From the NCBI GenBank assembly GCA_964604795.1, contig CAZSBQ010000001.1:1-59999 (forward strand): a DNA stretch of 59,999 bases, given 5' to 3'. Under the pieces are notes generated by a model, which saw nothing but the letters and a program-made list of their open reading frames with translations, was not told the origin of the DNA and searched no databases. Shown here in pieces: positions 11,953-59,999 of the stretch. The position numbers and the translations under genes are program-made. Each line of letters begins with the position of its first letter. The stretch's first letter is position 1. Origin of the DNA: an uncultured Victivallales bacterium. Lineage in GTDB: Bacteria; Verrucomicrobiota; Lentisphaeria; Oligosphaerales; CAZSBQ01.

Positions 11953-11961
11953 GAGCTCCCA

Positions 11962-12591: not shown

Positions 12592-12627
12592 CGGCCAAGC
12601 ACAAACCACAAACCACCGAGGTGTCCC

Positions 12628-13041: not shown

Positions 13042-13050
13042 GTCTGATCC

Positions 13051-13713: not shown

Positions 13714-13717
13714 AAGA

Positions 13718-15163
13718 ATGCAGAAAACAGCAATGGCAGCTCATCTTCGTCCCGTTTCATCACTTGCATCCCGGATTCCGCGCGCCCGGTTGTTGTGCGC
13801 CCTCTTTCTTTGTTCGGCCGTGTCCGCGTCCGCAAACAGCGAATCCATTCCCGTCCGTCCTCGGTCCATGACCCAGGCCGAGCTGAACCTGTGGAACGAT
13901 CCCGCATTCCAGAAGCAATTCACCCAGAGCTACATCGCCGAAACCGAGATCGAGCCGCGGATATCCGAGGACGAGCGCGAAACCATGCAGAAGATCATGC
14001 TGCACATCGCCGATGAAAAACTCGAAGAAGCCGCCGCGCTGCTGCGCAAACACTTGGACGAGACAAGCAGCGCGGTGTTCGACTTCACGCTGGGCAACCT
14101 CCATTTTCAGCGGGACAATCTCGACCAGGCCGTCCCACACTACGAAACCGCCGTCGACAAATATCCCAAATTCCGTCGTGCCTGGAAGAATCTTGCCCTC
14201 ATTCACGTCCGCAAGGCCAACTATGCCGACGCGCTGCCCGCTCTCACCAAGACCATCGAATTGGGTGGGGGCGATTCCCTCATCTACGGCCTGCTCGGCT
14301 ACTCCTACTCCTCGGTCGAGAACCACCTCGCCGCGGAGTCCGCATACCGCATGGCGATCCTCCTCGATCCCGAAACCATGGACTGGAAAATGGGCCTGGC
14401 CCGCAGCCTGTTCAGGCAGGAGTCCTACGCGCGGGCCGCCGAGCTGTGCGCCAATCTGCTCGCCAAAAACCCCGAGCGCGCCGATCTCTGGATGCTCCAG
14501 GCAAACGCGTACATCGGACTCGAAAAACCCCTCGAAGCCGCCAAAAACTACGAGTTCATCGACCAACTCGGCAAATCCAGCGCCGCCACGCTCAACATGC
14601 TCGGCGACATCTACATCAACGAAAAACTCTTCGACATGGCCGTGCATTCCTACGTGCGCGCCATGAAAAAGGGCGATGATGCATCCCCCGCCCGCCCCGT
14701 CCGGGCCGCCAAGGTTCTGGCCGCCCGCAGCGCCTTCGAGCAAACGCAGACCCTGATTGCCGAGATCAAATCACGCTACGCCGAGAGCCTGGCCGACGAC
14801 GTCAAAAAAGACCTGCTCAAACTCGAGGCGCGCATCGCCGTAGCGCGCGGTGCCGGAGACGAGGAAGCACGCGTTCTGGAGGAAATCGTCGAACTCGATC
14901 CGCTCGACGGCGAAGCCCTCATCCTCCTCGGCCAATACCATCGCCGTCAGGGAAACCCCGAAAAAGCCGTCTTCTATTTCGAACGAGCCGCCTCCGTCGA
15001 AGACTATGAGGCCGACGCAAATCTCCGCCATGCACAATTGCTCGTTTCCCAGGAAAAATACGAGGAAGCCCTCCCGCTCCTCCGCAGCGCACAGCAAATC
15101 AACCCCCGAGAGGATGTCCAAAAATATCTGGAGCAAGTCGAACGAGTCGCAAAGGGACGGTGA
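13718..15163 (+). CDS. secreted TPR-repeat protein (TtpD-like TonB-cluster accessory)
   Basis: Signal peptide, then repeated TPR-like helices (LGNLHFQRDNLDQAVPHYETAVDKYPKF..., ANAYIGLEKPLEAAKNYE...). It occupies the last position of the exbBD-tonB cluster. Confidence 0.8.
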   Translation: MQKTAMAAHLRPVSSLASRIPRARLLCALFLCSAVSASANSESIPVRPRSMTQAELNLWNDPAFQKQFTQSYIAETEIEPRISEDERETMQKIMLHIADEKLEEAAALLRKHLDETSSAVFDFTLGNLHFQRDNLDQAVPHYETAVDKYPKFRRAWKNLALIHVRKANYADALPALTKTIELGGGDSLIYGLLGYSYSSVENHLAAESAYRMAILLDPETMDWKMGLARSLFRQESYARAAELCANLLAKNPERADLWMLQANAYIGLEKPLEAAKNYEFIDQLGKSSAATLNMLGDIYINEKLFDMAVHSYVRAMKKGDDASPARPVRAAKVLAARSAFEQTQTLIAEIKSRYAESLADDVKKDLLKLEARIAVARGAGDEEARVLEEIVELDPLDGEALILLGQYHRRQGNPEKAVFYFERAASVEDYEADANLRHAQLLVSQEKYEEALPLLRSAQQINPREDVQKYLEQVERVAKGR

Positions 15164-15332
15164 AAATGGATATCGAAATCAATTCCAAACATCAACCAAA
15201 CAAACTTCTAACTAATGCAGCATTTATAAAAAAACAGAGAGAGTATAGTTATGCACTGATCATGGAAACGATCAATTTTAGGTTTCAAAAAAAACAGCAG
15301 ACAATGTCAAATCCAACAAAAGGAGAATAAAA

Positions 15333-17795: not shown

Positions 17796-17817
17796 TCATT
17801 GAGAGGAAGAGCTGATC

Positions 17818-44397: not shown

Positions 44398-44474
44398 GAT
44401 TGTGTTTTTCGAGGATGTTCGACGAAAGGCGGAAAACAAGCGACACAAACCCAAAGAATATGCGAGGCTAAAGT

Positions 44475-44625
44475 ATGGGTTGTCTTGGCGACATCTGGAA
44501 CTTTATGAAGGAACGCAAAAAAATTCTGGCTGGCCCCCGTGGTTATTGTCCTGCTACTGCTGGGCAGCATTCTAATCTTTGGTGCCAGCAGCGCGGTTGC
44601 CCCTTTCATCTACACACTTTTCTGA
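44475..44625 (+). pseudogene. DUF5989-like small membrane protein gene with apparent +1 frameshift in an A7 run
   Basis: GAGG lies before ATG 44475. Frame 0 reads MGCLGDIWNFMKERKK up to the A7 run at 44517-44523. The +1 frame continues FWLAPVVIVLLLLGSILIFGASSAVAPFIYTLF* (stop 44623-44625), a clean TM helix with a family-typical end. Frame 0 continues into non-hydrophobic sequence. Confidence 0.55.
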
Positions 44626-44638
44626 GCAAGGTGCCGAC

Positions 44639-45010
44639 ATGAGGAATCCGTCCGAATCCCCCTATCAAACTGCACTTGTCGTAAGCACGGGATTTCTGGT
44701 CCTTGCGCTTCTCTTTAGCTGGCAATGGGCAATCTGGGTCGCCTTGGCTGTCGGCTTGGGCAGCAGCTTGTCCTTGAAGCTGACCCGTATAGTCCACCGC
44801 TTGTGGATGGGACTGGCCCACCTGCTCGGCCGGATCATCCCGAACCTCGTCTGGACAATTGTCTTCTACCTGATCCTGACCCCGATAGCCCTTGTCTACC
44901 GCCTGTGCAACCGAGACCCCCTGCATTGCCGAGGACAGCAGAACTCCATGTTCCACGCATACACCGGAGACCAGCCCGCCCAAAAGGACTTTTTCGACAA
45001 AACATGGTAG
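44639..45010 (+). CDS. SxtJ-like small membrane protein
   Basis: ATG 44639 lies within ORF 44579-45010. Length 123 aa with about 3 TM segments. It holds the usual position after a carbamoyltransferase and a DUF5989 gene. Confidence 0.55.
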   Translation: MRNPSESPYQTALVVSTGFLVLALLFSWQWAIWVALAVGLGSSLSLKLTRIVHRLWMGLAHLLGRIIPNLVWTIVFYLILTPIALVYRLCNRDPLHCRGQQNSMFHAYTGDQPAQKDFFDKTW

Positions 45011-45059
45011 ATTGATGGTGCACAGATCATGCTCGCTCCAGACGGAAGAACAAAGTCAC

Positions 45060-46016
45060 ATGACAACAAATAGCGTCATCATCCCCACCTACAATCGGCC
45101 GGACGATCTCGACCGATGTCTGGCCTCCATTACCGAGCAAACTCTGCTTCCCGACGAAGTGCTGGTCATCGACGACGGGGACCTGCCCGGGCTGCCCCAC
45201 CGGGAACGCCTCGAGCAACTCGGCGTGCGCTGCGAACTGCGCAAAAAACCGCAAAATGAAAAAGGCCTGACACGCTCCCGCAATCTCGGCGTCGAGCTGG
45301 CCAGCGGCGAGCATATTCTCTTCTTTGACGACGATGTGGAACTGGCGCCCGACTACGTTGAGCAGATTCAGGTGGCGTACGACAACACCGACGACCCCAA
45401 GCTCGGCGGTGTCGGCGGTTTCGACCTGCTTACGCCTTCGCCCACACCATTGACCTATTGCGAGTATTTTTACAACAGGCTGTTTTTGATCTCGCCCCGG
45501 CGTCCGTACACCATCAGCCCCTCCGGATTCACCGAGCTGTTGCCCGCGCTGCGCTGCTTTCCTCCGAGGCAGCTGTCCCCTGCCGATATGCTGTTCGGAT
45601 ATTCGTTCTCCTTTCACCGCCGGGTTTTCGAAAAGTGCCGGTTTGCCGAACACTATACGCACGGATACTGTCAGGGAGAGGACAAGGAATTCACGCTGCG
45701 TGTATCCGCCGACTTCAATCTCTATTTTCAGCCCTCGGCCCGCCTGCGGCACTTCCACTCCCCCGCCGAGCGCGTCGACAAGTATCGGCGTGGCAGGGAT
45801 TATGTTCTGGCGGCGCACGGTCTTGCCACCACCGGCCGGGGGCGCACTGCCCTCTTCTTCTACTCGTGGGTGGGGCACTTCCTGAAACGGCTCGCAACGG
45901 CGTGCGTGAAACACGACCGCGATGAATTCCTGAGGGTCAGAGGAATCCTGGATGCCGCAGTCATGGTGCTGCGGGGTGAGGACCATGCATACAAACCGAA
46001 ATCACAGGCGCCGTGA
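45060..46016 (+). CDS. GT2-family glycosyltransferase
   Basis: ATG 45060 lies within ORF 44892-46016. VIIPTYNRPDDLDRCLASITEQT and FFDDDVEL (DxD). Confidence 0.85.
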   Translation: MTTNSVIIPTYNRPDDLDRCLASITEQTLLPDEVLVIDDGDLPGLPHRERLEQLGVRCELRKKPQNEKGLTRSRNLGVELASGEHILFFDDDVELAPDYVEQIQVAYDNTDDPKLGGVGGFDLLTPSPTPLTYCEYFYNRLFLISPRRPYTISPSGFTELLPALRCFPPRQLSPADMLFGYSFSFHRRVFEKCRFAEHYTHGYCQGEDKEFTLRVSADFNLYFQPSARLRHFHSPAERVDKYRRGRDYVLAAHGLATTGRGRTALFFYSWVGHFLKRLATACVKHDRDEFLRVRGILDAAVMVLRGEDHAYKPKSQAP

Positions 46017-46148
46017 GCAACACATGGACGTTCACCGTCTTTTCGGGAAGCCATACGAAGTCCGTGATCGGAAGGGTTCATCGGCAGCAAGAAACTTTGT
46101 TGGCCAGACCCTTTGCCAACCCAGGCTGATTCTTCAAACGGTACCGGG

Positions 46149-46176
46149 TTGACATCCGACTGTGCAATCGTATAAT
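46149..46176 (+). promoter_or_regulatory. near-consensus sigma70-type promoter
   Basis: TTGACA (46149-46154), a 16-nt spacer, then TATAAT (46171-46176). It sits 52 nt upstream of ATG 46228 in a 200-bp gap. Confidence 0.45.
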
Positions 46177-46227
46177 CGTCAACAACGATGAAGTGGATGA
46201 GAGCTTGAGAAACTGGTCTTGGCACCA

Positions 46228-47469
46228 ATGCGCATAGGTATCCTTATAAATTGCTTGGAGGTCGGTGGCGCGGAGCGCATGGCGTTGCGCCTGCTTGATC
46301 TACTGGACAGCCAGGGGCACGATGTCCTTTTGTTCACAACCGACGGAACGCGGGCCATGCCACTTCACACGGATGCGCGCAGAGCGGCGGAACTGGAGGA
46401 CTGTCTCGTTCAACTCAGCCAGCTCAGCGTCGAGGCCCCAACCTGGCGCAAAGTCTTGGCGACGCCTCGGCAACTCCTTAGACTCAGACACCACCTGAGG
46501 GCCTTCGACATTCAAACACTGGTCAGCTTCGAGGACCGCGCCAACATCGTCAGCATGACGGTGCCTGCCCGGATTCGTCGCATTCTCTCGATCCGACATC
46601 CCATGGTGTCCGTGCTGTTTTTCAAGACTCCCCTGAAGCGCTGGCTGATCGATGCCGCATTCCGCCTTTTTCTCCGCGGGGTGGATATCGTCACGTTCAA
46701 TTCCACCGAGTCCATGACCGAATTCCGCGACCACTTCGGCGTGCCGTCCGCACGTCTGGCTGTGATCCCCAACTTCTGCGACCACGAGGAACTCAAGGAG
46801 GAAGCTGGGCAACACGTCGTTCCTGCGGAATATGCCGAGGTATTTCACCACCCCACCGCGGTCGCCTGCGGCCGGTTCAAACCCGTCAAGGGCTTCGAGC
46901 AGCTGATCCGCGCCTTCAGCCGCGTTCACGAACAGCTTCCGGATGCCCGCCTCGTCATTCTTGGCGACGGCCCGCTGATGCCGGCGCTACGCGATCTGGC
47001 GCACCGCCTGGACCTCGGCAATCGGGTAGTCCTGCCGGGCTTCACCAACCATCCCCCCGCATGGCTGTCCAGGGCGGATGTCTTCGTGCTCAGTTCGCTG
47101 TCGGAGGGGTTTCCCAACGTTCTGCTGGAATCGCTCGCACTCGGCACTCCGGCCATTGCCGCCGACTGTGTTTCGGGGCCGCGCGAAATTCTGGCGCCGG
47201 CCACGGATGTCACCCAAAAGGCTGCGGAGGTGGAACTGGCCGAATTCGGCATTCTTACCCCTTCCTTGCCGCACGTCGTTCCCACAGCCGACACCCCGCT
47301 CAACGAGGCGGAATCCGCCCTGGTCGAGGGCTTGCTGCGCATCCTTCGGGATGACACTCTCCGGTCGCGCTACGCCGAACTCGGACATCGACGCTCCCTG
47401 GATTTCGGTGTGGATAAAATTCGTGAACGATGGCTGAACCTTCTGGGAGAATCGAACTCAAATGCTTAG
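46228..47469 (+). CDS. GT4-family glycosyltransferase
   Basis: MRIGILINCLEVGGAERMALRL at the N-terminus. EGFPNVLLESLALGTPAIAADCVSGPREIL is a GT-B motif. Confidence 0.85.
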   Translation: MRIGILINCLEVGGAERMALRLLDLLDSQGHDVLLFTTDGTRAMPLHTDARRAAELEDCLVQLSQLSVEAPTWRKVLATPRQLLRLRHHLRAFDIQTLVSFEDRANIVSMTVPARIRRILSIRHPMVSVLFFKTPLKRWLIDAAFRLFLRGVDIVTFNSTESMTEFRDHFGVPSARLAVIPNFCDHEELKEEAGQHVVPAEYAEVFHHPTAVACGRFKPVKGFEQLIRAFSRVHEQLPDARLVILGDGPLMPALRDLAHRLDLGNRVVLPGFTNHPPAWLSRADVFVLSSLSEGFPNVLLESLALGTPAIAADCVSGPREILAPATDVTQKAAEVELAEFGILTPSLPHVVPTADTPLNEAESALVEGLLRILRDDTLRSRYAELGHRRSLDFGVDKIRERWLNLLGESNSNA

Positions 47470-48322
47470 TCCCTTGCTGTCAATAGCTTCTCCCTGCGCG
47501 TGCCGGTTCGGGCATGTCGGCGTCATCATCAACAATCATCTGCAGGGTCGCAGGGAGATCCGCGCCCAGGTGGACACGCTGGCGCGGGACTTCGACTTCA
47601 TCGGTCTCGACGAGCTGAAGTCAGCGATCAAACAACGGCGGAAGCGACCGTTCTGTCTGCTCACCTTCGACGACGGCAAGCAGATTCAGGTCGAGGCGAC
47701 GGAGGAACTGGAGCGGCTCGGGATTCCGGCGGCAATCTACGTGGTGACCGCATCCATGGATTCGCCCGAGCCACTTTGGTTCGACAAGCTGCGCGCCCTG
47801 CGCGAAGCGGGTGTTCCTCTCCCCGACGACCTGCAACAGTCCCACATCAAAAAGCATCCCCTTGCCGATATCCAACCCCGGGTCGACGAGGCCTGCCGCC
47901 GCTTCGGTGTTGATGCCGAAGCCGAGGATCCGCGAAGCCAGGCCTTCGCGTGGGAAACCGCCCGCGATTTGGACCGTCGCGGATTCACCATCGGCGCCCA
48001 CACTGTGGACCACGCCATCCTGACCAATGAGACGTTCAGCAAAGCTGAACGCCAAATTCGCGCGTCCATTGAGGCGGTTTCCGAGGCGCTCGGCAAGCCC
48101 TGCACCACATTCGCCTTTCCCCGCGGCAGATATACAGACGATCTGCTGCGGATGGCGCAAGCTGCCGGTGCCGAAGACACAATGACAACCGAACCCGTTT
48201 GGTTTCGACGCGACACTCCTCTCATCCGCCTCCCTCGTGTGCAGCTCAGTGAGCGAGCCTCGCCCGACAAATGCCGTGCCAAACTCGTGGCTGCTTTGCC
48301 CGGCTTCATTTTGAAAAAATAA
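47462..48322 (+). CDS. polysaccharide deacetylase (NodB homology domain)
   Basis: LLTFDDGK is NodB motif 1. GAHTVDHAIL is the H-x-x-x-H motif 2. Confidence 0.8.
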   Translation: MLSPLLSIASPCACRFGHVGVIINNHLQGRREIRAQVDTLARDFDFIGLDELKSAIKQRRKRPFCLLTFDDGKQIQVEATEELERLGIPAAIYVVTASMDSPEPLWFDKLRALREAGVPLPDDLQQSHIKKHPLADIQPRVDEACRRFGVDAEAEDPRSQAFAWETARDLDRRGFTIGAHTVDHAILTNETFSKAERQIRASIEAVSEALGKPCTTFAFPRGRYTDDLLRMAQAAGAEDTMTTEPVWFRRDTPLIRLPRVQLSERASPDKCRAKLVAALPGFILKK

Positions 48323-48393
48323 CCATTCCAGCGTGGGGTTTGTTTTCAATCAACAGATGATATATGTTTGCAGCTTTTAGGGGATATGACAAC

Positions 48394-51300
48394 ATGATGA
48401 GTTTTCGCCGTCGAGCGTTTGCGTGCAGCCGAAGCTGGTGGATGTTGGCGGCGTTTGCGAGTGGTTTTTCGGGGATATTGGCGGGCTCGGCCTCCGCCGG
48501 CGTGTTCGATGGCATGACTCCGAAGCAGCGGCGGTATCTTGAGTCGCGCATCTTTGTGGTTTCCACCGCGCCGCAGCGCGCCGAATTGCCGTCCTCGGTG
48601 ATCAACACCAAGCATTTGCCGGCGGTGACTTCGCAGGGGCAGGCGGGAACGTGCGGTGCGTATGGGATCACCTACTACTACAAGACCTGGCAGGAGGCGC
48701 GCGAACGCGGGTGGACACGTCCGAACCCGGCCGTGAATCCGGAACGATGCGCGAGTCCGGCGTACAGCTACGATTTGCTGAGGCACGGACCTCAGTCCGG
48801 CGCGTCTCCCCTAGAAGTGGCGCAGCACATGGTGGATTTCGGAGCGTGCAATTGGCAGGACATGCCTTATGACGACACGTCCGTGGGATCGCGCAACTGG
48901 CCGCCTGCGGACAAGTGGCGGGCGGCCATGCCCTGGCGTGCGCAGGCGGCCGGCATCATCCCGAAGTTGGACCAGAAAGCGGGGCGGCGCGCTCTCAAGG
49001 CGCACCTGGCCGGCGGAGATTTGGCATCCACCGCGATGACAGCTTCGCAGAATCTGCACGACTACCCCGAGGGCAAATTGACATCCAACAACGTGATCTA
49101 CGCCTGCGACACCGACGGCGGAGTAATTGACCACGCCCTGACCATCATCGGCTACGACGACAACCGAGAATATCTGGATGAGGAAGCGGGAATCCTCCGG
49201 CGCGGCGCGTTTCTCGCGGTCAACAGTTGGGGGACGGGCTGGGGTATCAGAGAGCCCACCGTCGGCACGCGCGGGTTCTGCTGGCTGGCGTATCAGTTGT
49301 TCGACAATGGCGGCGGCTGGCCCGAGGCAGTCGTGATGCGCGACCGCAGGACCTATAATCCGGAATTTGTGGTCGAACTGGGAGTCGCCCACACGGAGGC
49401 CAAACTTTTTGGAACGCTGACCACCAGCGGACGCGGCGACCACGGCATCCAACTTTTTCCGGGACTGAATATGGCCCCGCACCCCACAGACCAATCCATC
49501 TGGATTGATGTCTCCGATCTGCTCGACTACGGACGCGCCGGATTCACCCTCGATATCCGGGACTTCAGCGAGGAAGCCGGCACGCTTGATCCCTTGAGAA
49601 TTGAAAGCTGGGACGGCACGCATGCCCTGGCTTCCCTGTCCGCGCCCGTACCAACCGTGGACAACAACACGGACCCCAGTCCCGTCACGCTCTATGTCGG
49701 ACGTTATCAGCAACGGTTGGACATGGGTGCGGCGGACGATTTGCGCCAGGGGAGCGCGGCGTGGGCTGACGCCGACGGGGACGGGGATTTGGACCTGCTG
49801 ATTGCCGGCGGTTTCGGCGGCGAGTCGTTCGAGAGGAAGACGCTGTACGCGCGCAACGACGGCGAAGCCGGGTTCACGGTTCTTGATCCGGGCATGATTG
49901 CAGGAGATTCCGCCGCCTGGATCGACATCGACAATGACGGGGATGTCGACGCCATCGTCAGCGCATCCGACCGAATCCCGGACAGTGCCAACCAGACGGT
50001 CGTGTATCGCAACGACGGCGGCGCGACCTTCACCGCCCTTGCGCAAACGCTTCCCGCGGCCAACGCCGGAGCACTCGCCGTCGGCGACTTCGACAACGAC
50101 GGACGCATGGACCTTTGCATCGGCAACGACGGCGAAACGGCCGTCTGGCTGAACCGCGGCGGCGGCAGCTTCTCGAAGCGGACGGCGGGGTTGCCCGCGC
50201 TGGGCGCTTACGCCGACGGGTATGCCATCCGCGCGGCCGATCTTAACGGCGACCACCGCCTGGACCTGGTTCTCTCCGGCATCGGCGACGACGAAGCGAC
50301 GCGGGCGTACCTAAATCAGGGGGTACCCCTGCGATTTTCTCCCGCGCCAGGCACGCTGCCCGACGTGCGGTTCCCCGCATTGGCCTTGGCGGACGCCGAT
50401 CTCGACGGGGATCTCGACCTGGTAATGAGCGGTTGCCGGGGAGACCGCCAGATGCAGCTGTTTCGCAATGACGGAGCGGGTGGTTTTAGGGCAACGGAGA
50501 CCTCGCTGCCGCAGCTTCGGGCCGGCAATCTCGCCTGGGCCGACGTCAATGCCGACGGCCGCCCCGATCTGCTCGCCACCGGGCGCGAAGAAGAGGTGTG
50601 GGGCGCGTATCCCGACCGCTACTACAAAAACGACACCCTGGTGCTGACCCAAAATGCCGACGGCGACTTCGAGCAATTCGGCCCGCCGCTGCCGGACGTT
50701 TCCCGGGGCGTTGCGAACTTCGCGGACGTCAACGGCGACGGCAACCCGGACATCCTCGTCGGCGGCACGCTGGCGCAGATTTATGAAGTCGCGAGTGACA
50801 AGCTCACCCTCGGTGTCTATCTGCACGGCGACACCAAGCCTGGGTGGTTTGACGGCAATACCGCACCGAATGCGCCGACTTCGTTGAACGCGGAGCATGA
50901 CGGACACGGACGCGTCACGTTCACCTGGAGCGGTGCCGCAGATGCCGAGACGCCCGAGGCAGGCTTACGCTACCAGTTGCGCTGCGGCACGACCAGCGGG
51001 GGGCACGACGTGTTCAGCGGCGTTCATCTGCCCGGTACCCCGGCAGCGTTTCAGCGCTCGGGCCACTTCCTTGACCATGTTCCCGTGGGAACCCTGTATT
51101 GGCAGGTGCGCACCGTGGATTCGGCAGGCATCTGTTCGTCCTGGTCGGCCGAGGAGCAGGCTGCCGTGGACACCTACACGCACCCCCAGTACCTGGCGGT
51201 CGACGGGAATGCGGCGTACGAAGGTGCCGTCGATCCCGCACCCGGCACTTACCCGCACGACCGGGGCGATGTCGTCTCGCTCACCGCTACGCCCGCCGCC

Positions 51301-54300
51301 GGCTACGCGTTCAGCGAATGGCAGGGCGACATCGACGGCGTGGCCGATCCCGCAGCCGCCAATACCACGGTGACGCTCGACGCCGACCGACAGTTGACCG
51401 CGGTATTCAGGCGAATTGCGGACCCCGCACGCCCGGCCTGGACGCTCGCGGCGGATGGCGTTTCCGGCTACTACGCGACTCAACAGCACACGCTCGAATT
51501 CTTTGACGGGTACCTCCTGCGCATGGGAGGACAAACCTCGAGCTGGGCCCTGCAAAACCTCGTCTACGCATCCAACGACGATGGCCAAACCTGGCGGCAG
51601 CTCTGGCAGGTCGCCTGGAATGACCACGAGATCGAATTTTCTGTCCCCTGGCCCGCCCGCGCCGGCCACTGCTCTGAAGTTTTCAACGGCAAACTCTGGG
51701 TCTTCGCCGGCGAGGGGGCGGAAGATTTCCTGGCCGACGTGTGGAGGGCGAGCGATGTTTTCACCTGGGAGCGAGTGACCGACGCCGCACCATGGGGCAG
51801 GAGGATAAACGCGGGCAGCGCGGTGTTCGACGACAAACTGTGGATTCTCGGCGGCGAAAAATTTGCGGGTGGCGGCAATCCCCTCGACCGCTTCAGCGAT
51901 GTCTGGTCGAGCGCGGACGGCGAAAACTGGACCCAGGTCACCGACAACGCCCCCTGGCCCGCCGGGACCGTGGAGGCGACCACCTTCAACGGCAGCCTGA
52001 TTGTGCTGGCCCGCAGCGAAGTCTGGCAGAGCGCCGACGGCGAAAATTGGAACGCCCTCACTCTCGACGCCCCGTTCGGACAGCTCCTCGACACCTGCCT
52101 GGAAGCCTTCAACGGCAAACTGGTCGTCGTGGGCGGATATGATAACACCACCTGGCAGAGAAGCGACCAGACATGGACCTCGCTCGACGGCGTCAACTGG
52201 TCGGAAATCGCGCCCGATCCCGACTCCCACTGGAGCGCGCGCAGCCACACGGCTTCCTGCGTTGAGGGCGACCGGCTCTGGCTCGTCGGCGGAAAACAGG
52301 CGGACGGCGACATCGCGGACGACGCCTGGTACCTCGGGGCGGGCGAACTGCCGGACACCATGGGACGGCTGCGCCTGTTCGTCGAACCGCTTGCCGGCGG
52401 TCGCATCAAACCGCCCGGCAACACCAGCTACGTCGACGATCTCGGTACCGACTTCTCCCTCGTTGCGAACCCTGCAATCGGCTACGCCTTCGACCACTGG
52501 GAGGGGCCGGTAGCGGACCCGGACAGCGCCGAAACCACCGTCGCGCTCGAACGCGACACCGAGGTGACCGCCCATTTCACCACCACGAACACCGCGCTGG
52601 CCATCACTTTTCAGCCGGACATCAGGGTTGGCGGCGTTTCGGTCTCGCCCGGCACCTCCGACCGGGAGTGGGACTGGGAAGCGGACACCATTACGTACAT
52701 GCATCCGCGCGGGGCGGAGCTGACCGTGCAGGCCACGCCGAAGTTCGGATACGTCTTCGACCACTGGGAAGGCGATCTGAGCGGCACCTCCGGCACGGCG
52801 GACCTCGTGCTTGACGAACCGCGAAATATCACCGCCGTGTTCGTTGAGGATCCGATACTCTCCACCGGCACCCTGGCCTGCAGCGATACGTGGGCGGCGG
52901 TGATCAAGGCGGACGGCACGGCCTGGGCGGCCGGCACCAATGACAACCGCCAGCAGGGACATGCGCTCGCGCCGGACCAGCCCGGCGAATTCTGGCCGGT
53001 CGCCATCGCCTCGAACGTGCGCCAGCTTTTTCTCGCCAAAAACGGCGGCCTCGGCATCACGAGCAACGGTGACTTGCTCGGTTGGGGACCGGCCTGGGGA
53101 GGTTTGGCCGACTACGAACTTGCCGCGCATCCGGTACTGACCTCGCTGGACAGCGGAATTCGCGGGTGTGCGGGCGCGTTTGGCTTGACCACGGACCGAA
53201 ATCTGTATTTCTTTGACCGATACGGTAAACTGTTCGACAGCGTGAACCGAAGTGTGGACCTCGGATTCGACAGCGATCTGGGCGATATCGTCGCGCTCGC
53301 GGAAGGCCCGAACACCGTCTTCGCCGTAACCAGGGACGGGAAACTCTACGGCTGGGGTGAAAACGCTGTCGGCCAACTCGGGCTCGGCGATAGTTTGCCG
53401 ACGCACGAACGTCCGCAACGGGTACGCACCGGCGGCGGGGTGCGTCGCGTCGCGTGCGGACACGACCCCGTACGCGTCTTCACGCTCGCGCTGCTGGACG
53501 ATCTGACCGTGGCAAGCTGGGGAGACAACAGCAGAGGACAGCTCGGACGCACCGTCGACGAGTCAACCCCCACCGCTCTGTCCGCAGCGGTTCCGGAACT
53601 GGCGAACATCGTCAAGATTTCCGCCGGCGACGGACACGGTCTCGCTCTCGATCAAAACGGCAATCTCCACGCTTGGGGCGACAACACGTTCGCTCAGCTT
53701 GGCACCGGCGATTTCGACGACGCGGCGGCGCCCGTCCCGGTGGCGACCGACATTGCGGACATCGCCGCCGGACCGCTCTACACGCTGGTGCGCCGAACCG
53801 ACGGTGCATTCGCCTGGTGCGGCCAGGTGCCGGGACGCGACCAGCCGCTGATGACGCTGACCGAGATTCCCGGACTGGCCTACGACGATCCGAGCCTGAC
53901 ACTGGAAGTTGCCGTCGAACCGTCCGGCATCGGTGAATTCTCGCCGCGTGCCGGGCGCTCGCACATTGCGGCGAACCGCAGCATCCCTCTGCATGCCGAA
54001 GACACGGAACGCTACGAATTTGTCCATTGGTCGGAAAACGTCGACGATCCGCTGGGTGCGGACACCGCGCTGACCACGTCGACAAGCACGAGCATCAGCG
54101 TTCACTACCGCTATCAGGCAGAAGCGGCGGCCCGGCTTGCGATCGGGGCAGGCACAGGCGGCCAGGTGAATCCGGCGGACGGGACACACGAATACGAGCC
54201 GGGGACGGTTGTCACGGTACGGGCCGACGCCGATACCGGCTACCGCTTTCAGCGCTGGCAGGGGCCCGTCAGTGATCCCCGCAGTCGAACCACCACCATC

Positions 54301-57300
54301 ATCATGGACCGGGATCAGAGCGTGCTGGCTAACTTCGCCGAACTGCGCCTGGAGCCGCAACCGCAGATATCCACCGGACGCAACAATGTCATGGAATACG
54401 ACGGCTTGACACTCGACAGCGAGGGCAAGGTCTACGACTACGGCGCGACCGCTTCGGGATCGCCAATCCCTCTGAACGGCGAGGGCGATTTGTTGGAAAA
54501 CGTCGTGGCGCTGGCCGTCGGCTCCTCCCACCAGCTCGCCCTGAGCCAGGACGGCGCCGTGTGGGCTTGGGGCGACAACACACAGGGCCAGTGCGGAACC
54601 GGAGACGTGGAAACCGACAGCTGCGGGTTCCCGCAAACGGTGCTGGCGGACAATGTCGTTTTGCAGGGAATCAGCCGCATCGCCGCGGGCGCACAGTTTT
54701 CACTGGCCCTCGATCCTAACGGTTTCCTGTACAGTTGGGGCAACAACACGCGGGGGCAGCTCGGCCACAGCCCGGAAGCGGACACGGTGCCGAGCGCCAA
54801 CCCCGTCCGCGACGCCGACGGCGATGCCCTGACCGACGTGCGCGCCATTGCCTGCGGTGCGGAGTTCGCACTGGCCGCACTGGCCGACGGTACGGTGCGT
54901 GGATGGGGAAACAACGATGCCGGGCAACTGGGATTCATCGCTCGGCGAGGCGAGGCGATCCCGCAGGCTGTGCCGAGGGTACCCGCGGCCGTCAACGTGG
55001 CGGCGGGCGGCGCCTGCGCCGGGATGATCTCCGCCGAGGGTGAAGTTTGGACCTGGGGCGACAATACCTACGGCCAGCTCGGCCACGGCACGACGGGAGG
55101 CGCGGAAACGCCCGCCCGCGTCAATGGCCTGCCGCCCATCGTCTCGCTCGCCGCAGGGCCCGAACACATGCTGGCGCTTGATGAAAACGGCACAGTCTGG
55201 GCCTGGGGGCGCGGCGAAATGGGACGGCTCGGCAACGGCGCTCTCGCCGACAGCAACACACCCGTGCAGGTACTCGATCCCGCCCGCAGTGCGCCGCTCT
55301 CCGGCATTCAGGCCGTGGCTGCACATGCTCATTCGTACGCGATCAACAGCGGCGGACGCCTTTTGCAATGGGGCTATGACCGCAACTCGTTTGGAGAACC
55401 CGACCCGGTCAGCTTGCCCTGGGACCGCCTCGGGCTCGGGCAGCCCGACGGCGACGGCCTGTGCGCGCTCAGTCTCAGCAGCTTCCCGGAAGAAGGCGGC
55501 AGCGTCCATCCCAACGAGGGGCTGGTCTTCGTCAATCGCGGCACACTGGTGGAAATCCAGGCGCAACCGTCTGCGGGCTACCGTTTTCTCGGCTGGGGCG
55601 GCGACCTGTCCGGAACGTTGGCTACCGCCACCGTTCGCATGCGTGACGACCTCGCTGCCGTGGCCTACTACGAATTGGCGGGGCCGAGACTGCGTCTGGC
55701 ACCGCTGAGAATGACTCCGGGGCAGACCTCCCATCTCGAGGTGTTTCTCGACGGCGAATCCGCTCCCCTGGAAGGCGTGCAGCTGGAATTGGCCGCACCC
55801 GACGGATTCTCGTTCGGACCGGCAAGCTACGGCCTCAACAATGGTCCCAATAGCGAGCTTTCCCAGACGGTTCCCGAACCCACGCGCACAATGGCCGTGC
55901 TGGTCGACACCGATGATCAGGCAGGCCTGCTGGTGGACGGCGACCTGCCGCTGATGAGCTTTGAAATCATCGCCGAGCCCGACTGCGCCCCCGGAACTTA
56001 CACCGTCGAACTATCGGACAGAACGGCGCACACGCCGGTCGTCGCCTACGCGGACGGACACCTGTGGCAGCGGGCGGAAACCGAAGTGGCAAGCGTGACC
56101 GTTGACCCCACGCAGGGGCTTGTCCTGCGCCTGGTCGCCGCGCCTGCGGACAGCGACACGGACATTCTTACCACGCGCCCCGCCGGGCCCTCGAGCCTGC
56201 GCGCAGACCGGGACTTCAACGTGGAACTCTGGCTACAGGATCGACGCGCCAACGGGCAGCCCGTGGCCGCCGCGCAGCTTGACCTGCTTCTGCCGGCCTC
56301 CCTGACCGCAGTAGAAGTCAACGGCACCGAAGCCACGAGCGCCGTGTCCGGCGTCGTCAACGGCGGTACCGTCAGCGATTTCGGCGGCAGCTTGGCGGAG
56401 GGTGCCGTGTCGCTGGGCGACTGGACTTGCGTCGCCCGGCTCCGGGTCGCGCCCACCACCGCCGGTCAGGCAAGCCTGAGCATTGCGGACGCCGCAATCC
56501 GCTTGGACGACGACACGGTTTTGACCGAACCGGCCATCGCCCTGCAACCCGGCAACGCGCTGGACGTCACGTTTCGGGACAACGCCGCGCCCGCCGCACA
56601 GCCGGGGCCCGCCGTCTCGGTGCGCTGGGCCGGTCAGGTAAGCGGCATGCTCGGCGGTGCGGACGACAATCCCGACGATAGGCTCAGCTACACTCTTGTC
56701 GACCAGCCCGAGCACGGCGAAATCATCGCCTTCGACGCGGAGACCGGTGCGTTCACCTACCAGCCGCACCTCGCGTACAACGGCCCGGACCGCTTCTCGT
56801 ACACAGTGAGCGACGGCACCCTCACTTCCGACCCCGCCGACCAAGCGCTTTTCGTGTCTCGCGGCTGGACCGCCACGCTCCGACGCGGTGCCGGCTGGTG
56901 CGTATTCGGACAGGACGAGGAGGCGTCGGAGGACCTGGACACCGTCGATTTGTCCGCGGACTCCGCAGCCACAGTGGGCTTTGAGGCGCCCGATTCGAGC
57001 GGCCTGCTGCAGCGGGATTTGCGCGCCCGCGATGACGCCCCCGTCTGGCGCCTTCGCGCCGCTCCCGCCCCGGAAATCACGAAGCTTGAATGGGATTCGC
57101 GGGCCATTCCCGGAGGCATGCATCTGGTGCGGGTGTCGCCCAAATCGGCCGTGCCGGTGCTGGTGGACATGCGGGATCGGAGCCGTCTCGACTTGGCGCC
57201 GGGTGTTGTGCATGAATTTGACTTGGCCATGCCCGAAGGCTATGCGCTGCCGCTGGGATCGGGCTGGAACCTGATCGCTTTTCCCGGCACGCCGGTTCGC

Positions 57301-57675
57301 AACGAGGTTGCCGGCGTGTTTGCGGACAGCGCGGACGAACAGGTGCAGGTGTATGAGTGGGAAAATGGCGTGTACAACCGTCCCTCCCACCTCCGCGCAT
57401 ACCGGGGCTACTGGGTGCGCACCGAGGGCAAAACGACCCGGAACCTATCCCTCATACCGGCCTTCGTCGCCGAGTTTCAGCTCGAAAAGGGCTGGAATCT
57501 GCTCGGGGTGCCCTATCCCGCCGCATTGCCTGTTGTTTCGGGCCTGTTTCCCGCAGCCTGGCGGTTTGACGGCGAACGCTACGAACGGGCGACGCGCCTG
57601 TTGCCGGGCACCGCCTACTGGGTGTTCGCATACGAACCGGCTGCCATCACCTTTGCAGAGGAGATTTCTCAATGA
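48394..57675 (+). CDS. giant secreted multidomain protein: papain-like C1 peptidase, FG-GAP propeller, FN3, Kelch propeller, two RCC1 propellers, six B-repeat-like linkers, two cohesin-like modules, cadherin-like domain, shared C-terminal module
   Basis: ORF 48364-57675, with the likely start at ATG 48394 (MMSFRRRAFACSRSWWMLAAFASGF... signal). Candidate C1 triad: QGQAGTCGAYG (Cys codon 48652-48654), VIDHALTIIGYDDN, AVNSWGTGWG. FG-GAP loops are repeated about 7 times (ADADGDGDLDLLIAGG etc.). Kelch-like blades are repeated about 5 times (FNGKLWVFAG, FDDKLWILGG, ...). RCC1 motifs occur in two blocks (GWGENAVGQLGLGD, WGDNTQGQCGTGD, ...). Confidence 0.9.
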   Translation: MMSFRRRAFACSRSWWMLAAFASGFSGILAGSASAGVFDGMTPKQRRYLESRIFVVSTAPQRAELPSSVINTKHLPAVTSQGQAGTCGAYGITYYYKTWQEARERGWTRPNPAVNPERCASPAYSYDLLRHGPQSGASPLEVAQHMVDFGACNWQDMPYDDTSVGSRNWPPADKWRAAMPWRAQAAGIIPKLDQKAGRRALKAHLAGGDLASTAMTASQNLHDYPEGKLTSNNVIYACDTDGGVIDHALTIIGYDDNREYLDEEAGILRRGAFLAVNSWGTGWGIREPTVGTRGFCWLAYQLFDNGGGWPEAVVMRDRRTYNPEFVVELGVAHTEAKLFGTLTTSGRGDHGIQLFPGLNMAPHPTDQSIWIDVSDLLDYGRAGFTLDIRDFSEEAGTLDPLRIESWDGTHALASLSAPVPTVDNNTDPSPVTLYVGRYQQRLDMGAADDLRQGSAAWADADGDGDLDLLIAGGFGGESFERKTLYARNDGEAGFTVLDPGMIAGDSAAWIDIDNDGDVDAIVSASDRIPDSANQTVVYRNDGGATFTALAQTLPAANAGALAVGDFDNDGRMDLCIGNDGETAVWLNRGGGSFSKRTAGLPALGAYADGYAIRAADLNGDHRLDLVLSGIGDDEATRAYLNQGVPLRFSPAPGTLPDVRFPALALADADLDGDLDLVMSGCRGDRQMQLFRNDGAGGFRATETSLPQLRAGNLAWADVNADGRPDLLATGREEEVWGAYPDRYYKNDTLVLTQNADGDFEQFGPPLPDVSRGVANFADVNGDGNPDILVGGTLAQIYEVASDKLTLGVYLHGDTKPGWFDGNTAPNAPTSLNAEHDGHGRVTFTWSGAADAETPEAGLRYQLRCGTTSGGHDVFSGVHLPGTPAAFQRSGHFLDHVPVGTLYWQVRTVDSAGICSSWSAEEQAAVDTYTHPQYLAVDGNAAYEGAVDPAPGTYPHDRGDVVSLTATPAAGYAFSEWQGDIDGVADPAAANTTVTLDADRQLTAVFRRIADPARPAWTLAADGVSGYYATQQHTLEFFDGYLLRMGGQTSSWALQNLVYASNDDGQTWRQLWQVAWNDHEIEFSVPWPARAGHCSEVFNGKLWVFAGEGAEDFLADVWRASDVFTWERVTDAAPWGRRINAGSAVFDDKLWILGGEKFAGGGNPLDRFSDVWSSADGENWTQVTDNAPWPAGTVEATTFNGSLIVLARSEVWQSADGENWNALTLDAPFGQLLDTCLEAFNGKLVVVGGYDNTTWQRSDQTWTSLDGVNWSEIAPDPDSHWSARSHTASCVEGDRLWLVGGKQADGDIADDAWYLGAGELPDTMGRLRLFVEPLAGGRIKPPGNTSYVDDLGTDFSLVANPAIGYAFDHWEGPVADPDSAETTVALERDTEVTAHFTTTNTALAITFQPDIRVGGVSVSPGTSDREWDWEADTITYMHPRGAELTVQATPKFGYVFDHWEGDLSGTSGTADLVLDEPRNITAVFVEDPILSTGTLACSDTWAAVIKADGTAWAAGTNDNRQQGHALAPDQPGEFWPVAIASNVRQLFLAKNGGLGITSNGDLLGWGPAWGGLADYELAAHPVLTSLDSGIRGCAGAFGLTTDRNLYFFDRYGKLFDSVNRSVDLGFDSDLGDIVALAEGPNTVFAVTRDGKLYGWGENAVGQLGLGDSLPTHERPQRVRTGGGVRRVACGHDPVRVFTLALLDDLTVASWGDNSRGQLGRTVDESTPTALSAAVPELANIVKISAGDGHGLALDQNGNLHAWGDNTFAQLGTGDFDDAAAPVPVATDIADIAAGPLYTLVRRTDGAFAWCGQVPGRDQPLMTLTEIPGLAYDDPSLTLEVAVEPSGIGEFSPRAGRSHIAANRSIPLHAEDTERYEFVHWSENVDDPLGADTALTTSTSTSISVHYRYQAEAAARLAIGAGTGGQVNPADGTHEYEPGTVVTVRADADTGYRFQRWQGPVSDPRSRTTTIIMDRDQSVLANFAELRLEPQPQISTGRNNVMEYDGLTLDSEGKVYDYGATASGSPIPLNGEGDLLENVVALAVGSSHQLALSQDGAVWAWGDNTQGQCGTGDVETDSCGFPQTVLADNVVLQGISRIAAGAQFSLALDPNGFLYSWGNNTRGQLGHSPEADTVPSANPVRDADGDALTDVRAIACGAEFALAALADGTVRGWGNNDAGQLGFIARRGEAIPQAVPRVPAAVNVAAGGACAGMISAEGEVWTWGDNTYGQLGHGTTGGAETPARVNGLPPIVSLAAGPEHMLALDENGTVWAWGRGEMGRLGNGALADSNTPVQVLDPARSAPLSGIQAVAAHAHSYAINSGGRLLQWGYDRNSFGEPDPVSLPWDRLGLGQPDGDGLCALSLSSFPEEGGSVHPNEGLVFVNRGTLVEIQAQPSAGYRFLGWGGDLSGTLATATVRMRDDLAAVAYYELAGPRLRLAPLRMTPGQTSHLEVFLDGESAPLEGVQLELAAPDGFSFGPASYGLNNGPNSELSQTVPEPTRTMAVLVDTDDQAGLLVDGDLPLMSFEIIAEPDCAPGTYTVELSDRTAHTPVVAYADGHLWQRAETEVASVTVDPTQGLVLRLVAAPADSDTDILTTRPAGPSSLRADRDFNVELWLQDRRANGQPVAAAQLDLLLPASLTAVEVNGTEATSAVSGVVNGGTVSDFGGSLAEGAVSLGDWTCVARLRVAPTTAGQASLSIADAAIRLDDDTVLTEPAIALQPGNALDVTFRDNAAPAAQPGPAVSVRWAGQVSGMLGGADDNPDDRLSYTLVDQPEHGEIIAFDAETGAFTYQPHLAYNGPDRFSYTVSDGTLTSDPADQALFVSRGWTATLRRGAGWCVFGQDEEASEDLDTVDLSADSAATVGFEAPDSSGLLQRDLRARDDAPVWRLRAAPAPEITKLEWDSRAIPGGMHLVRVSPKSAVPVLVDMRDRSRLDLAPGVVHEFDLAMPEGYALPLGSGWNLIAFPGTPVRNEVAGVFADSADEQVQVYEWENGVYNRPSHLRAYRGYWVRTEGKTTRNLSLIPAFVAEFQLEKGWNLLGVPYPAALPVVSGLFPAAWRFDGERYERATRLLPGTAYWVFAYEPAAITFAEEISQ

Positions 57676-59999
57676 ATCATCGACACATGTTGCTCGTTTT
57701 AACGCTGAGCGGCGTTCTGGTCGCTGTGACGGGCGCAGCGGAGATCGTCGGTGACGTCAATGGCGACGGCGCCCGCAATGTCGCAGACCGTGTCCTGCTG
57801 GAGTCAATTCTCGACGGGCGCACCGCGGAGGCCGCAGCGGCGGATGTGGATGGCGACGGTGCCGTTGACTCGCGGGATGCCGAAGCGCTGATCGATCTCC
57901 TGCTCGAACGCCCCCCGTACCAGCCCGTCGGAAACTCCGAACTCCCCGCCACCGGCGGCAGCATCACTCTCGGCGCTCTCACTCTCACCGCCGACGCAGA
58001 CGATTTTGCGGAATCCGCAACCGTATACGCGGCATCGGCGGAGCGCAGCCTCGGATTCGATGACGACGCCAACTCGGTGGTGTACCGGCTGGACGGCATT
58101 CCCTACAGCGCCGACGGCGCGGAAACTGGCCTGGCCGTGGCATTGCCGGTGGCCGACAACCGCCGGTCCGTGGTAACAACGATGATCCTGGTGGGCGAGG
58201 AAGTCAACGCGCCGAGCAGTGCGGGCGTCGCGCTGGCCACGCGCCTGGTGCCCGCGCTCGTCGCCGACGGCATGGCTTCGATCGAGCTTCCCCCCATTCC
58301 AGCGCCGCCGCCCGAACTCGAAGAAGAGCTGCCGGAAACCGTCCGGCTCTACGTGCAGCGCGTGGAGGGAATGGAATCATACTCTTTCACCGTTGACGAC
58401 GACGCGCGGGGTGACGCCATATCCCCATTGGAGGGCGAGACTCCCGTCGAACCGGGTTCGTCTGAGGCGGCTCAAGAGGACTTTCGCCCTCCAGAAGGGG
58501 CGGTGCCATACACGCCGCAAGCCTCTCGTACAAGGTCACGCGCGGGGTTGCAGTTGGACTTGGTGACCCCGACCACGACGACCGCCGAGCAGAAGCAGCG
58601 GGTGGTTGATGCCATGACCAACGCCGCCGCCACCATCGCCGGACTTGGGTTCGACCTGACAAAACGCTCCGACCCCGTCAAAATCGAGGTCAAAAAGTTG
58701 AGCAAAGGCACGAGCGGATACTACCAGCCGAGCATGGTCAGCCTGAACTGGACAACGCTGGAAATCAATCAGAGCCTGGTGACGAACCCAACGAAGGAAA
58801 CCACCCTGCGGCGGACGATCATCCACGAGTACTTCCACATGATCCAGGCGCGGTACGACCCGCGCAGCGCCATTGCGCAGGCCAAGTACAACGCTCCCCA
58901 GCTCTGGATTGACGAGGCCGCGTCGGTGTGGATCGAAAAGTACGCGAGCGGCGGAACAATCAGCGATTTCATGGGCAAATACGCCGGGGAAGTGGTGAAG
59001 GGCCTGCATGTGCCGTGCTCGGGATTGAGCTGGACCAACGCGGCCGCCCGAACCAAGGCGCAAAACCACGGATACGGACTCTCCATGATGCTCGAATTCC
59101 TGTTCGGCTCGCACGGGACCGCGGAGAATCCCACGCTGGCGAATGTCTACACGAGCCTGCTCGCGGGAACGTCGGTCGAACAGTCCTTCCTCGATGCCGT
59201 GCCCAATCCGGCGAGTTGGTGGGACGATATGCTGATCGCCTACGCGCAGGGCGACATCGGCGTGCCCCCCGTGGATTTTGCGACCTCGGTCCTCAACAAA
59301 AACCGCTCACTGACCTTCAAAAAGGACCACGCACCGTCGGACACGCTGGAGCGCACGCTGCCGCGGCTCGATGAATTCGAAAGCACCGTCACGTTCGTCA
59401 ATTGGAACTGGAAGAGCCAGCCCCCCGATCACGGGAAACGACGTCTGGTCGCTGAACTCGCGGCGGACGACGACCAGTTCGCGATCATGGGGGTTCAGCC
59501 AAAAACAGGACGAAAAAGCGGCAATGTGCTGCGCGGCAAAAGCATGGCACTGGGGATTCTGGACGGGCGACACCACACGCTGTGGACGGACGAGATGACG
59601 CTGTCCGACAACGGGCAGTCGCTCATGCCCGGCCACTACCTGCTCGCGCGCCGGCTGGTCGATTCCGCCGCCGAGGCCGCGCGTCCCGTCCTGAAGGTAT
59701 GGTACGTCGACACGCGCGTGCCGCTGGAGCATGCGCAGGGAAGCATGGCCCTGCGCAAGTACACGGTCAGCGGACACATCGAATGTGATCAGATATTGAA
59801 GCTCGACAGCTACCCGCTCCCCATCTTGAACGTGGAAATGGACGGCGCGATCAACCTCCCCGTTTCCCTCGCCATCGACAGCACCGCCGATCCGGACAGC
59901 TACTACACAACCCAAAGGTATGAAATCGAGGTGACCCATTATAGCGCCGACACAACCCAGACCAGCGTCGACACCTTCGGCCCCTTCGCCGGCGAGAAC
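57672..59999 (+). CDS. secreted dockerin-domain protein with HExxH (gluzincin-like) metalloprotease motif; 3' end outside the window
   Basis: This ORF is not in the supplied track because it has no stop before the window end. My own translation in the frame of ATG 57672 found no stop through 59999. The ATG overlaps the upstream TGA as ATGA (57672-57675). Signal peptide MNHRHMLLVLTLSGVLVAVTGAAE. Dockerin-like duplicated Ca loops DVNGDGARNVAD and DVDGDGAVDSRD lie at 57747-57911. HEYFH is at 58824-58838, followed by LWIDEAASVW. Confidence 0.8.
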   Translation, partial: MNHRHMLLVLTLSGVLVAVTGAAEIVGDVNGDGARNVADRVLLESILDGRTAEAAAADVDGDGAVDSRDAEALIDLLLERPPYQPVGNSELPATGGSITLGALTLTADADDFAESATVYAASAERSLGFDDDANSVVYRLDGIPYSADGAETGLAVALPVADNRRSVVTTMILVGEEVNAPSSAGVALATRLVPALVADGMASIELPPIPAPPPELEEELPETVRLYVQRVEGMESYSFTVDDDARGDAISPLEGETPVEPGSSEAAQEDFRPPEGAVPYTPQASRTRSRAGLQLDLVTPTTTTAEQKQRVVDAMTNAAATIAGLGFDLTKRSDPVKIEVKKLSKGTSGYYQPSMVSLNWTTLEINQSLVTNPTKETTLRRTIIHEYFHMIQARYDPRSAIAQAKYNAPQLWIDEAASVWIEKYASGGTISDFMGKYAGEVVKGLHVPCSGLSWTNAAARTKAQNHGYGLSMMLEFLFGSHGTAENPTLANVYTSLLAGTSVEQSFLDAVPNPASWWDDMLIAYAQGDIGVPPVDFATSVLNKNRSLTFKKDHAPSDTLERTLPRLDEFESTVTFVNWNWKSQPPDHGKRRLVAELAADDDQFAIMGVQPKTGRKSGNVLRGKSMALGILDGRHHTLWTDEMTLSDNGQSLMPGHYLLARRLVDSAAEAARPVLKVWYVDTRVPLEHAQGSMALRKYTVSGHIECDQILKLDSYPLPILNVEMDGAINLPVSLAIDSTADPDSYYTTQRYEIEVTHYSADTTQTSVDTFGPFAGEN

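Follow-up and report, generated by a model that had tools for sequence, protein, structure and literature searches.

The cohesin-dockerin pair is the textbook high-affinity device by which cellulosomes are assembled. To our knowledge, its role beyond plant-fibre degradation is mostly unknown, and we know of no partner for many of the dockerin-like modules that occur outside cellulosomes. Non-cellulosomal systems have been established or proposed in several settings, among them toxin complexes of Clostridium perfringens and a cohesin of Archaeoglobus. The amylosome of Ruminococcus bromii is another such system (PMC4611034). In freshwater Planctomycetes, the 'planctosome' hypothesis holds that polypeptides are broken down by a machine built on cohesins and dockerins (Andrei et al. 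2019, ISME J, PMC6461901), and Limihaloglobus sulfuriphilus, also of the Planctomycetes-Verrucomicrobia-Chlamydiae (PVC) group, has a scaffoldin-like protein and dockerins fused to peptidase-like domains (PMC11557425). No paper tying Victivallales to a cohesin-dockerin system was found in a literature search. Here we describe a gene pair from an uncultured Victivallales bacterium (assembly GCA_964604795.1, contig CAZSBQ010000001.1, positions 1 to 59,999 of the forward strand; this whole stretch of 59,999 nucleotides (nt) is called the window below). It consists of a gene for a giant protein with two tandem cohesin-type modules and, directly downstream, a gene for a dockerin-bearing HExxH protein (Table 1). 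We lean towards a secreted proteolytic complex of two subunits, joined by a cohesin-dockerin contact of the non-cellulosomal kind, in which propellers and beta-sandwiches would bind the substrate.

The N-terminal dockerin of the downstream protein is genuine as judged from its sequence, with a signature far beyond chance. Against the Pfam hidden Markov model (HMM) Dockerin_1 (PF00404), the whole protein scored 30.9 bits (E 3.2e-7; cut-off 22.9) and its first 93 amino acids (aa) scored 35.6 bits (E 1e-8, above the gathering score). Solved dockerins were matched by the single sequence at E 9.6e-5 and by a 14-sequence profile of the protein family (alignment A2) at E 4.1e-7, and 25 of the best matches of the profile in the PDB were dockerins or dockerin-bearing enzymes. 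A first-pass annotation of this DNA, made from the letters alone, had recognized the duplicated-segment signature of dockerins after the signal peptide, and it was right to do so. The calcium-loop motifs DVNGDGARNVAD (aa 28-39) and DVDGDGAVDSRD (aa 58-69) are each associated with a helix in the AlphaFold2 model (aa 37-47 and 67-77), with D28, N30, D32, N36 and D39 as ligands in the first loop and D58, D60, D62, D66 and D69 in the second. Most of these ligands are invariant in the 14 homologs, and the changes seen at the others are conservative. HMM score, duplicated loop-helix segments and likeness to solved dockerins all place the domain in this family. Readings of the loops as EF-hand, FG-GAP or thrombospondin-type repeats were rejected, as these gave sub-threshold E-values of 0.03-0.7 on the same fragment that matched Dockerin_1 at 1e-8. 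The usual recognition positions are not the same in both segments (V37-A38 in the first, S67-R68 in the second), which would suggest a single dockerin binding mode.

The downstream protein has 14 relatives (33-87% identity), the source names of which point to Lentisphaeria and Victivallales. Its open reading frame (ORF) reaches the end of the window with 776 aa visible and, since homologs have 783-872 aa, just the last tens of residues are absent.

Evidence for the cohesin nature of the giant's modules comes from profiles and from fold. A profile of module 1 only, built from ten orthologous giants (A9) and searched against 177,635 PDB sequences, had four Ruminococcus flavefaciens cohesins as its four top matches (best 5n5p_A, E 4.3e-4). 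An earlier, shallow profile of seven sequences, covering the whole two-module region, had ranked three cohesins first in the PDB at E 0.1-1.2. In an exhaustive search of a representative library, the module region of the window also retrieved P0021 (E 5.6e-10), a 915-aa protein from a Logan contig. It has six tandem cohesin-type repeats of ~139 aa followed by a C-terminal dockerin (45 bits), and its architecture is therefore scaffoldin-like; the dockerin is the sole part of it annotated by Pfam. A profile extended from the module 1 orthologs by the six P0021 repeats (A7) matched 5n5p_A over its full length at E 1.4e-7, and six of its six significant PDB matches were cohesins. Among members of the module 1-related family, the Pfam Cohesin model was matched weakly by 2 of 16 (best E 4e-4). 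The lone Pfam match in module 1 of the window, to NPCBM_assoc, covers 40 residues below threshold and was rejected as its identity.

An AlphaFold2 model of giant aa 2430-2745 (five-row alignment of the window and representative-search matches; mean predicted local distance difference test (pLDDT) 79.9) contains two separate all-beta domains, at aa ~2442-2580 and ~2586-2738, in agreement with the module boundaries drawn in the first-pass annotation. All peptide motifs quoted in that annotation were found where it had placed them, those of module 1 at aa 2451-2464, 2469-2484 and 2528-2552 and those of module 2 at aa 2618-2626, 2635-2652 and 2689-2707. The top Foldseek match of the two-module model in the PDB was 3l8q (E 1.1e-9), a pair of type II cohesins (dyad) from ScaA of Acetivibrio cellulolyticus; as the alignment has 376 columns, it covers both modules. 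Cohesins of all three types (I, II and III), from at least five organisms, were also matched as single domains, with target-normalised template modelling (TM) scores of 0.74-0.83 and root mean square deviations of 2.3-3.0 Å. They include 4uyq_A as well as 6kge_A, 5nrm_A, 2xdh and 5n5p_A (TM 0.78-0.83 against the two-module model; 0.80 for 5n5p_A), and two of the matches are non-cellulosomal cohesins. Integrin and adhesin Ig-like domains reached a TM of just 0.1-0.3. By these matches the predicted fold is that of the nine-stranded beta-sandwich (jelly-roll) of cohesins, and it superposes on solved cohesins, with which identity in the fold matches is 6-16%. Sequence, through the matches of the ortholog and extended profiles, and this predicted fold both identify module 1 as a divergent cohesin, nearest to the ScaB cohesins of R. 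flavefaciens.

Module 2 probably has a cohesin-like fold but belongs to a separate, unannotated family that would be a remote homolog of cohesins. It is modelled with pLDDT 86-94, and it is less securely a cohesin than module 1, its link to cohesins being a weak one at the level of the predicted fold. A profile of the module 2 family aligned in register with the module 1/cohesin profile in hhalign (E 0.0013, probability 18%), and the Pfam Cohesin model was matched weakly by 3 of 35 family members (best E 0.006). The two modules were also considered as duplicates of one another, an origin rejected at the sequence level (hhalign probability 0.2% with shallow profiles and only E 0.0013 with deeper ones). 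In the representative library, 19 other multidomain proteins carry the module 2 domain, in two to five copies each (one in P0033), and dockerin matches, full or weak, were present in 7 of these 19 proteins. The family is a candidate new cohesin-like family. Its domain is ~120 aa long, its library matches lie within P0018-P0037, and its consensus is ...LPxS...YyVEvW..D...G..g.VD..F...hG..F...sGT...G.vD.lGG...W.RlG.... Its neighbours in the same proteins are Big_9/cadherin, Laminin_G_3, beta-helix and PD40 domains, and a dockerin is often present at the C-terminus. All of these proteins are 'hypothetical' or without a name in their sources, one of which is candidate division Zixibacteria.

The first-pass annotation had made conservation of the gene pair in relatives a point on which its proposal depended, and the giant and dockerin genes adjoin in 12 of 12 distinct loci examined. 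A collinear giant lies directly upstream in every contig that is long enough (L001/L002, L003, L004/L005, L006, L007, L008 and one further contig), and the loci of species-representative metagenome-assembled genomes (MAGs; L009, L010 and L011) have the same arrangement. L012 has a more distant giant (P0023), with 26-28% identity over the module region, and its partner (804 aa, N-terminal dockerin at 38.4 bits) is 26% identical across the HExxH domain and 43% across the dockerin. Six-frame HMM scans of the window and L001-L011 revealed exactly one dockerin per locus, and one module 1 and one module 2 wherever the contig reaches far enough (L011 includes only part of module 2). L012 was outside these scans; its modules were identified in a protein scan of P0023 and its dockerin by a separate HMM match. 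Neither the 60-kb window nor the 10-kb flanks of the loci contained further dockerin or cohesin-type modules. As the genes flanking the pair vary from locus to locus, the pair itself is the conserved unit, a cassette passed on vertically within the Victivallales (Lentisphaerota, PVC group).

The overlap of the downstream start codon with the TGA of the giant gene (ATGA), noted in the first pass, was confirmed in the sequence. In L003, L004, L006, L007, L008 and L011 the start abuts or overlaps the end of the giant gene, with GGAGGA or GAGGAG 7-9 nt ahead of it in the last codons of the giant, and the two genes of L012 overlap by 8 nt.

Both proteins have peptidase-like domains. The N-terminus of the giant gave a marginal, partial match to Pfam Peptidase_C1 (PF00112; 21.2 bits, cut-off 20.7), and the papain motifs QGQAGTCGAYG (aa 91-101, Cys97), DHALTIIGYDD (aa 256-266, His257) and VNSWGTGWG (aa 286-294, Asn287) are present, so that both the family HMM and the catalytic Gln/Cys/His/Asn motifs place it in family C1. 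This motif set is kept in the distant giant orthologs P0016, P0017 and P0023, and the top PDB sequence matches of the region were Lpg2622, Cwp84 and cathepsin L. The four propellers were matched in Pfam by FG-GAP_3 (E 3.7e-30), Kelch_KLHDC2 (E 2.9e-15), WD40_RLD (E 5.7e-113) and RCC1 (E 2.5e-75), and the InlB B-repeats by Flg_new_2 (E 6.2e-60). The papain-like peptidase and four propellers described in the first pass are thus upheld by Pfam, PDB matches and motifs. Collinear giant orthologs of 3015-3106 aa are encoded in L001, L003, L004, L006, L007, L008, L010 and L012.

In the downstream protein, HEYFH (nt 58824-58838) is followed by WIDEAAS (nt 58905-58925), which includes D414/E415 (nt 58911-58916), and by E422 (nt 58935-58937). 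All 14 sequences share H385, E386, H389, D414 and E422 and have E or D at position 415, and the distant L012 partner keeps HELMH...LWLDEA...GE. The model places HEYFH on a helix at aa 373-395 and all three candidate third zinc ligands (D414, position 415 and E422) on a helix at aa 409-426. The HExxH arrangement suggested earlier is upheld at the sequence level, with the Glu of WIDEAAS as one of the three candidates for the third ligand. Family matches of the domain were sub-threshold: MXAN_6640_HExxH (E 1.4e-4; 21.7 bits against a cut-off of 140), SprT-like (E 0.037) and Peptidase_M9 (E 0.2). Foldseek ranked M1 aminopeptidases first for the downstream protein (ERAP1, PepN and IRAP; E 2e-4 to 2e-3 over ~650-690 columns, with a global TM of just ~0.2). 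The partner appears to be a gluzincin-like HExxH protein outside the curated families, for which these motifs make catalysis plausible. The model also has a beta-sandwich at aa 84-241, and the C-terminal sandwiches resemble the C-terminal domain of Clostridium perfringens enterotoxin and the collagen-binding domain of ColG (target-normalised TM ~0.5, Foldseek).

In the complex that we favour, the giant would be both enzyme and scaffold, with its papain-like peptidase, its four propellers, which probably capture substrate or ligand, and its two tandem cohesin-type modules near the C-terminus. The start/stop overlap and the internal Shine-Dalgarno-like sequence would favour co-ordinated synthesis, and both proteins would be exported, the downstream one via its own signal peptide. 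The N-terminal dockerin of the partner, presumably loaded with Ca2+, would plug into one cohesin-type module of the giant, more probably module 1. Docking would bring the HExxH zinc-metallopeptidase-like enzyme, together with the beta-sandwich binding domains that it carries, onto the giant and so give a two-peptidase complex. More tentatively, the pair may be a self-contained 1:1 cohesin-dockerin proteolytic holoenzyme of Lentisphaerota, using two cohesin families that domain libraries miss, with module 2 founding a new dockerin-receptor family; we think this bolder proposal somewhat doubtful. If it is true, the module 2 family would be a sign that many non-cellulosomal cohesin-dockerin assemblies, a large layer of them, lie hidden across uncultured bacteria.

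Several observations weigh against a two-subunit complex of this kind. In a search with Pfam Cohesin (PF00963) at E up to 10, the giant as a whole, each of its modules and the corresponding region of six orthologs all stayed without a match, and this search, proposed in the first pass, was the sole one of the checks run to turn out unfavourably. By that search alone the claim of two cohesin-like modules would fail, but the ortholog profile of module 1, the extended profile and the cohesin-like fold (3l8q being the best PDB match) uphold it. The case for module 2 is weak, in its Pfam touches as well as in hhalign, and the module 2 profile had no match among PDB sequences, solved cohesins included. 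As cohesins head the fold search of the PDB and are reached by the module 1 profile, the outcome that the first pass had named as fatal to its claim, no significant HMM or fold match at all, did not occur. The single-cohesin matches of Foldseek attach to the two-module model as a whole and do not distinguish module 1 from module 2. In L001 (9771-10001), which has an ortholog pair of 67% identity, a gap of ~230 nt separates the genes, so coupling is not universal in the family. Family scans of the Pfam/NCBIfam type detected no known sorting or anchor domain and, with no anchoring signal found, the location on the cell surface given in the first pass is unsupported. For the HExxH domain, no curated peptidase family of Pfam or NCBIfam was matched at threshold, and the model of this domain is only moderately confident at aa 400-530. 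Finally, two modules face a single dockerin, so that one module at least must have a different partner or no partner.

This last imbalance would also be expected if the modules and the dockerin were real but not partners of each other. The giant would then recruit other dockerin proteins from elsewhere in the genome, the HExxH protein would dock on a different cohesin, for example on an outer-membrane anchor, and adjacency would reflect a shared pathway or regulon. The presence of the module 2 family in many unrelated dockerin-bearing proteins suggests a wider interaction network of this sort, and PVC genomes can carry many dockerin fusions (PMC11557425). We nevertheless consider it unlikely, given that the pair, with its one dockerin per locus, persists in 12 distinct loci while the flanks change, that start/stop overlap is frequent, and that window and 10-kb flanks hold no further module of either type. 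A still less probable explanation would make the modules mere beta-sandwich spacers with a passive role, and the dockerin-like segment no more than an element stabilised by Ca2+ or binding glycans. The genes would adjoin because of an enzymatic link; for instance, maturation or processing of the giant might fall to the HExxH protein, or both proteins might act independently on the same substrate without a complex. Both the negative result with Pfam Cohesin and the low identity to solved cohesins fit such spacers, as does the general knowledge that many non-cellulosomal dockerin-like modules lack a known partner (Peer et al. 2009, as cited in PMC10066038). However, the best fold matches are specifically cohesins (target-normalised TM ~0.8) and lie well above generic Ig-like domains, the module 1 profile reaches cohesins by sequence, and both Ca loops and both helices of the dockerin are strongly conserved. 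The strict co-inheritance of these modules with exactly one dockerin is explained less naturally by either alternative than by the two-subunit complex.

Table 1. Features of the gene pair in the window (coordinates in nt; aa numbers refer to the protein concerned)
Feature	Position	Strand	Details	Basis
Giant ORF	48364..57675	+	3103 aa, N-terminal signal-peptide-like segment	ORF list and translation
Papain-like (C1) cysteine peptidase domain	48541..49353	+	Boundaries approximate	Pfam and motifs
Four beta-propellers	49741..55653	+	FG-GAP, Kelch and two RCC1-like, with InlB B-repeat (Flg_new_2) modules between; boundaries approximate	Pfam
Module 1	55681..56109	+	aa 2440-2582, divergent cohesin	Ortholog profile against PDB; fold model
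Module 2	56116..56574	+	aa 2585-2737, cohesin-like beta-sandwich, separate unannotated domain family	Fold model, Foldseek
Bacterial Ig/cadherin-like domain	56581..56850	+	aa 2740-2829	Pfam Big_9 (E 2.7e-10), Cadherin_5 (E 5.6e-10)
C-terminal 268-aa region of giant	56869..57672	+	aa 2836-3103	Kept in orthologs
Coupling junction	57658..57675	+	GAGGAG (57658-57663) in last codons of giant, then ATGA; ATG 57672 on stop 57673-57675	Sequence
Downstream ORF	57672..59999	+	Signal peptide, dockerin, beta-sandwich, HExxH domain, C-terminal beta-sandwiches	Translation; AlphaFold2 (pLDDT 73)
Dockerin	57750..57905	+	aa 27-78, Ca loops D28-D39 and D58-D69, helix after each	Pfam PF00404, PDB, model
Acidic/proline-rich in-frame insertion	58404..58529	+	aa 245-286 (42 aa), window copy only	
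Putative zinc-metallopeptidase alpha/beta domain	58548..59291	+	aa 293-540	HExxH motif, model
C-terminal beta-sandwich domains	59307..59999	+	aa 546-776, cut by window end	Model strands

Two parts of the proteins are of separate interest. The C-terminal region of the giant contains an internal duplication, with two GWNL...P...W...Y...YW repeats at aa 2967 and 3043 (units GWNLIAFPGTPV...YRGYWV and GWNLLGVPYPA...GTAYWVF). It may be an anchoring or binding domain; it had zero sequence matches in Pfam, NCBIfam or the PDB, and no anchor was therefore assigned. In the downstream protein of the window, the insertion ARGDAISPLEGETPVEPGSSEAAQEDFRPPEGAVPYTPQASR is missing from 13 of 13 aligned homologs, including the closest, P0001, which is 87% identical by BLASTP and 92% in alignment A2. 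It is predicted to be disordered (pLDDT ~28-29).

Directly upstream of the giant gene is a glycan-modification cluster (42523-48322; carbamoyltransferase, GT2, GT4 and polysaccharide deacetylase), which is not kept at the other loci. Genes at 5695-22494 encode a TonB-dependent receptor with CarboxypepD_reg, an ExbB-like protein, TPR proteins of 481 and 1558 aa, and an 820-aa Big_9/He_PIG/cadherin-like protein, and they point to a Gram-negative envelope context. On the minus strand, many long antisense ORFs (up to 832 aa) lie over the giant gene at 48811-57390. The 60% G+C composition most likely accounts for them, and they would not be genes.

Because PF00963 misses these cohesins, counts of cohesins that are based on it underestimate such systems, and the module 2 family could supply a new profile for finding further ones. 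As a test case the cassette is compact and amenable to recombinant expression, with one scaffold and one cargo co-inherited across about 12 lineages. It can serve to test the idea that PVC bacteria build protein-degrading machines with cohesins and dockerins, for which the 'planctosome' has so far been a hypothesis.

Compared with cellulosomal pairs, such as those of the R. flavefaciens ScaB type III cohesins (PDB 5n5p, 5m2o and 5aoz), the locus shares a dockerin of duplicated Ca-loop/helix segments and a module 1 that matches by profile and fold, and its tandem modules resemble the cohesin dyad 3l8q. It differs in its Gram-negative PVC host, in the N-terminal position of its dockerin and in having cohesins too divergent for PF00963. 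The cargo is peptidase-like and not a carbohydrate-active enzyme (CAZyme), and the scaffold is itself a cysteine-peptidase/propeller protein. A Pfam scan found neither CAZyme domains nor carbohydrate-binding modules (CBMs) in either protein, so that by this measure the pair is not a cellulosome. As in other non-cellulosomal systems, the same module pair is found beyond cellulose degradation, and 2w1n (C. perfringens GH84C) and 2xdh (Archaeoglobus fulgidus) are among the best fold matches. None of the systems of C. perfringens, A. fulgidus, R. bromii and L. sulfuriphilus has the giant architecture described here or a conserved, translationally coupled scaffold/cargo pair.

As an enzyme, the partner resembles the M1 aminopeptidases and M9 collagenases (gluzincins) in having HExxH followed by candidate acidic ligands on the next long helix, and in its domain order of beta-sandwich, catalytic domain and beta-sandwich. 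Unlike them, it falls below family thresholds, its HExxH is separated by 25 residues from E415 and 32 from E422, and the global TM is ~0.2.

The planctosome (PMC6461901) shares with this cassette a host in the PVC superphylum, a large secreted cohesin-bearing protein and Zn peptidases as dockerin-tethered cargo, and its adaptor protein likewise has an N-terminal signal peptide and then a dockerin. That model, which like ours is hypothetical, includes M12B and M14 peptidases, a lamin-tail anchor, P-domains and a separate adaptor, whereas here there are two proteins only, a papain-like peptidase together with an HExxH enzyme outside curated families, four propellers and strict adjacency. The Victivallales cassette is thus new in its phylum, in its restriction to two strictly adjacent genes, in its peptidase/four-propeller scaffold and family-less HExxH cargo, and in cohesins that evade Pfam.

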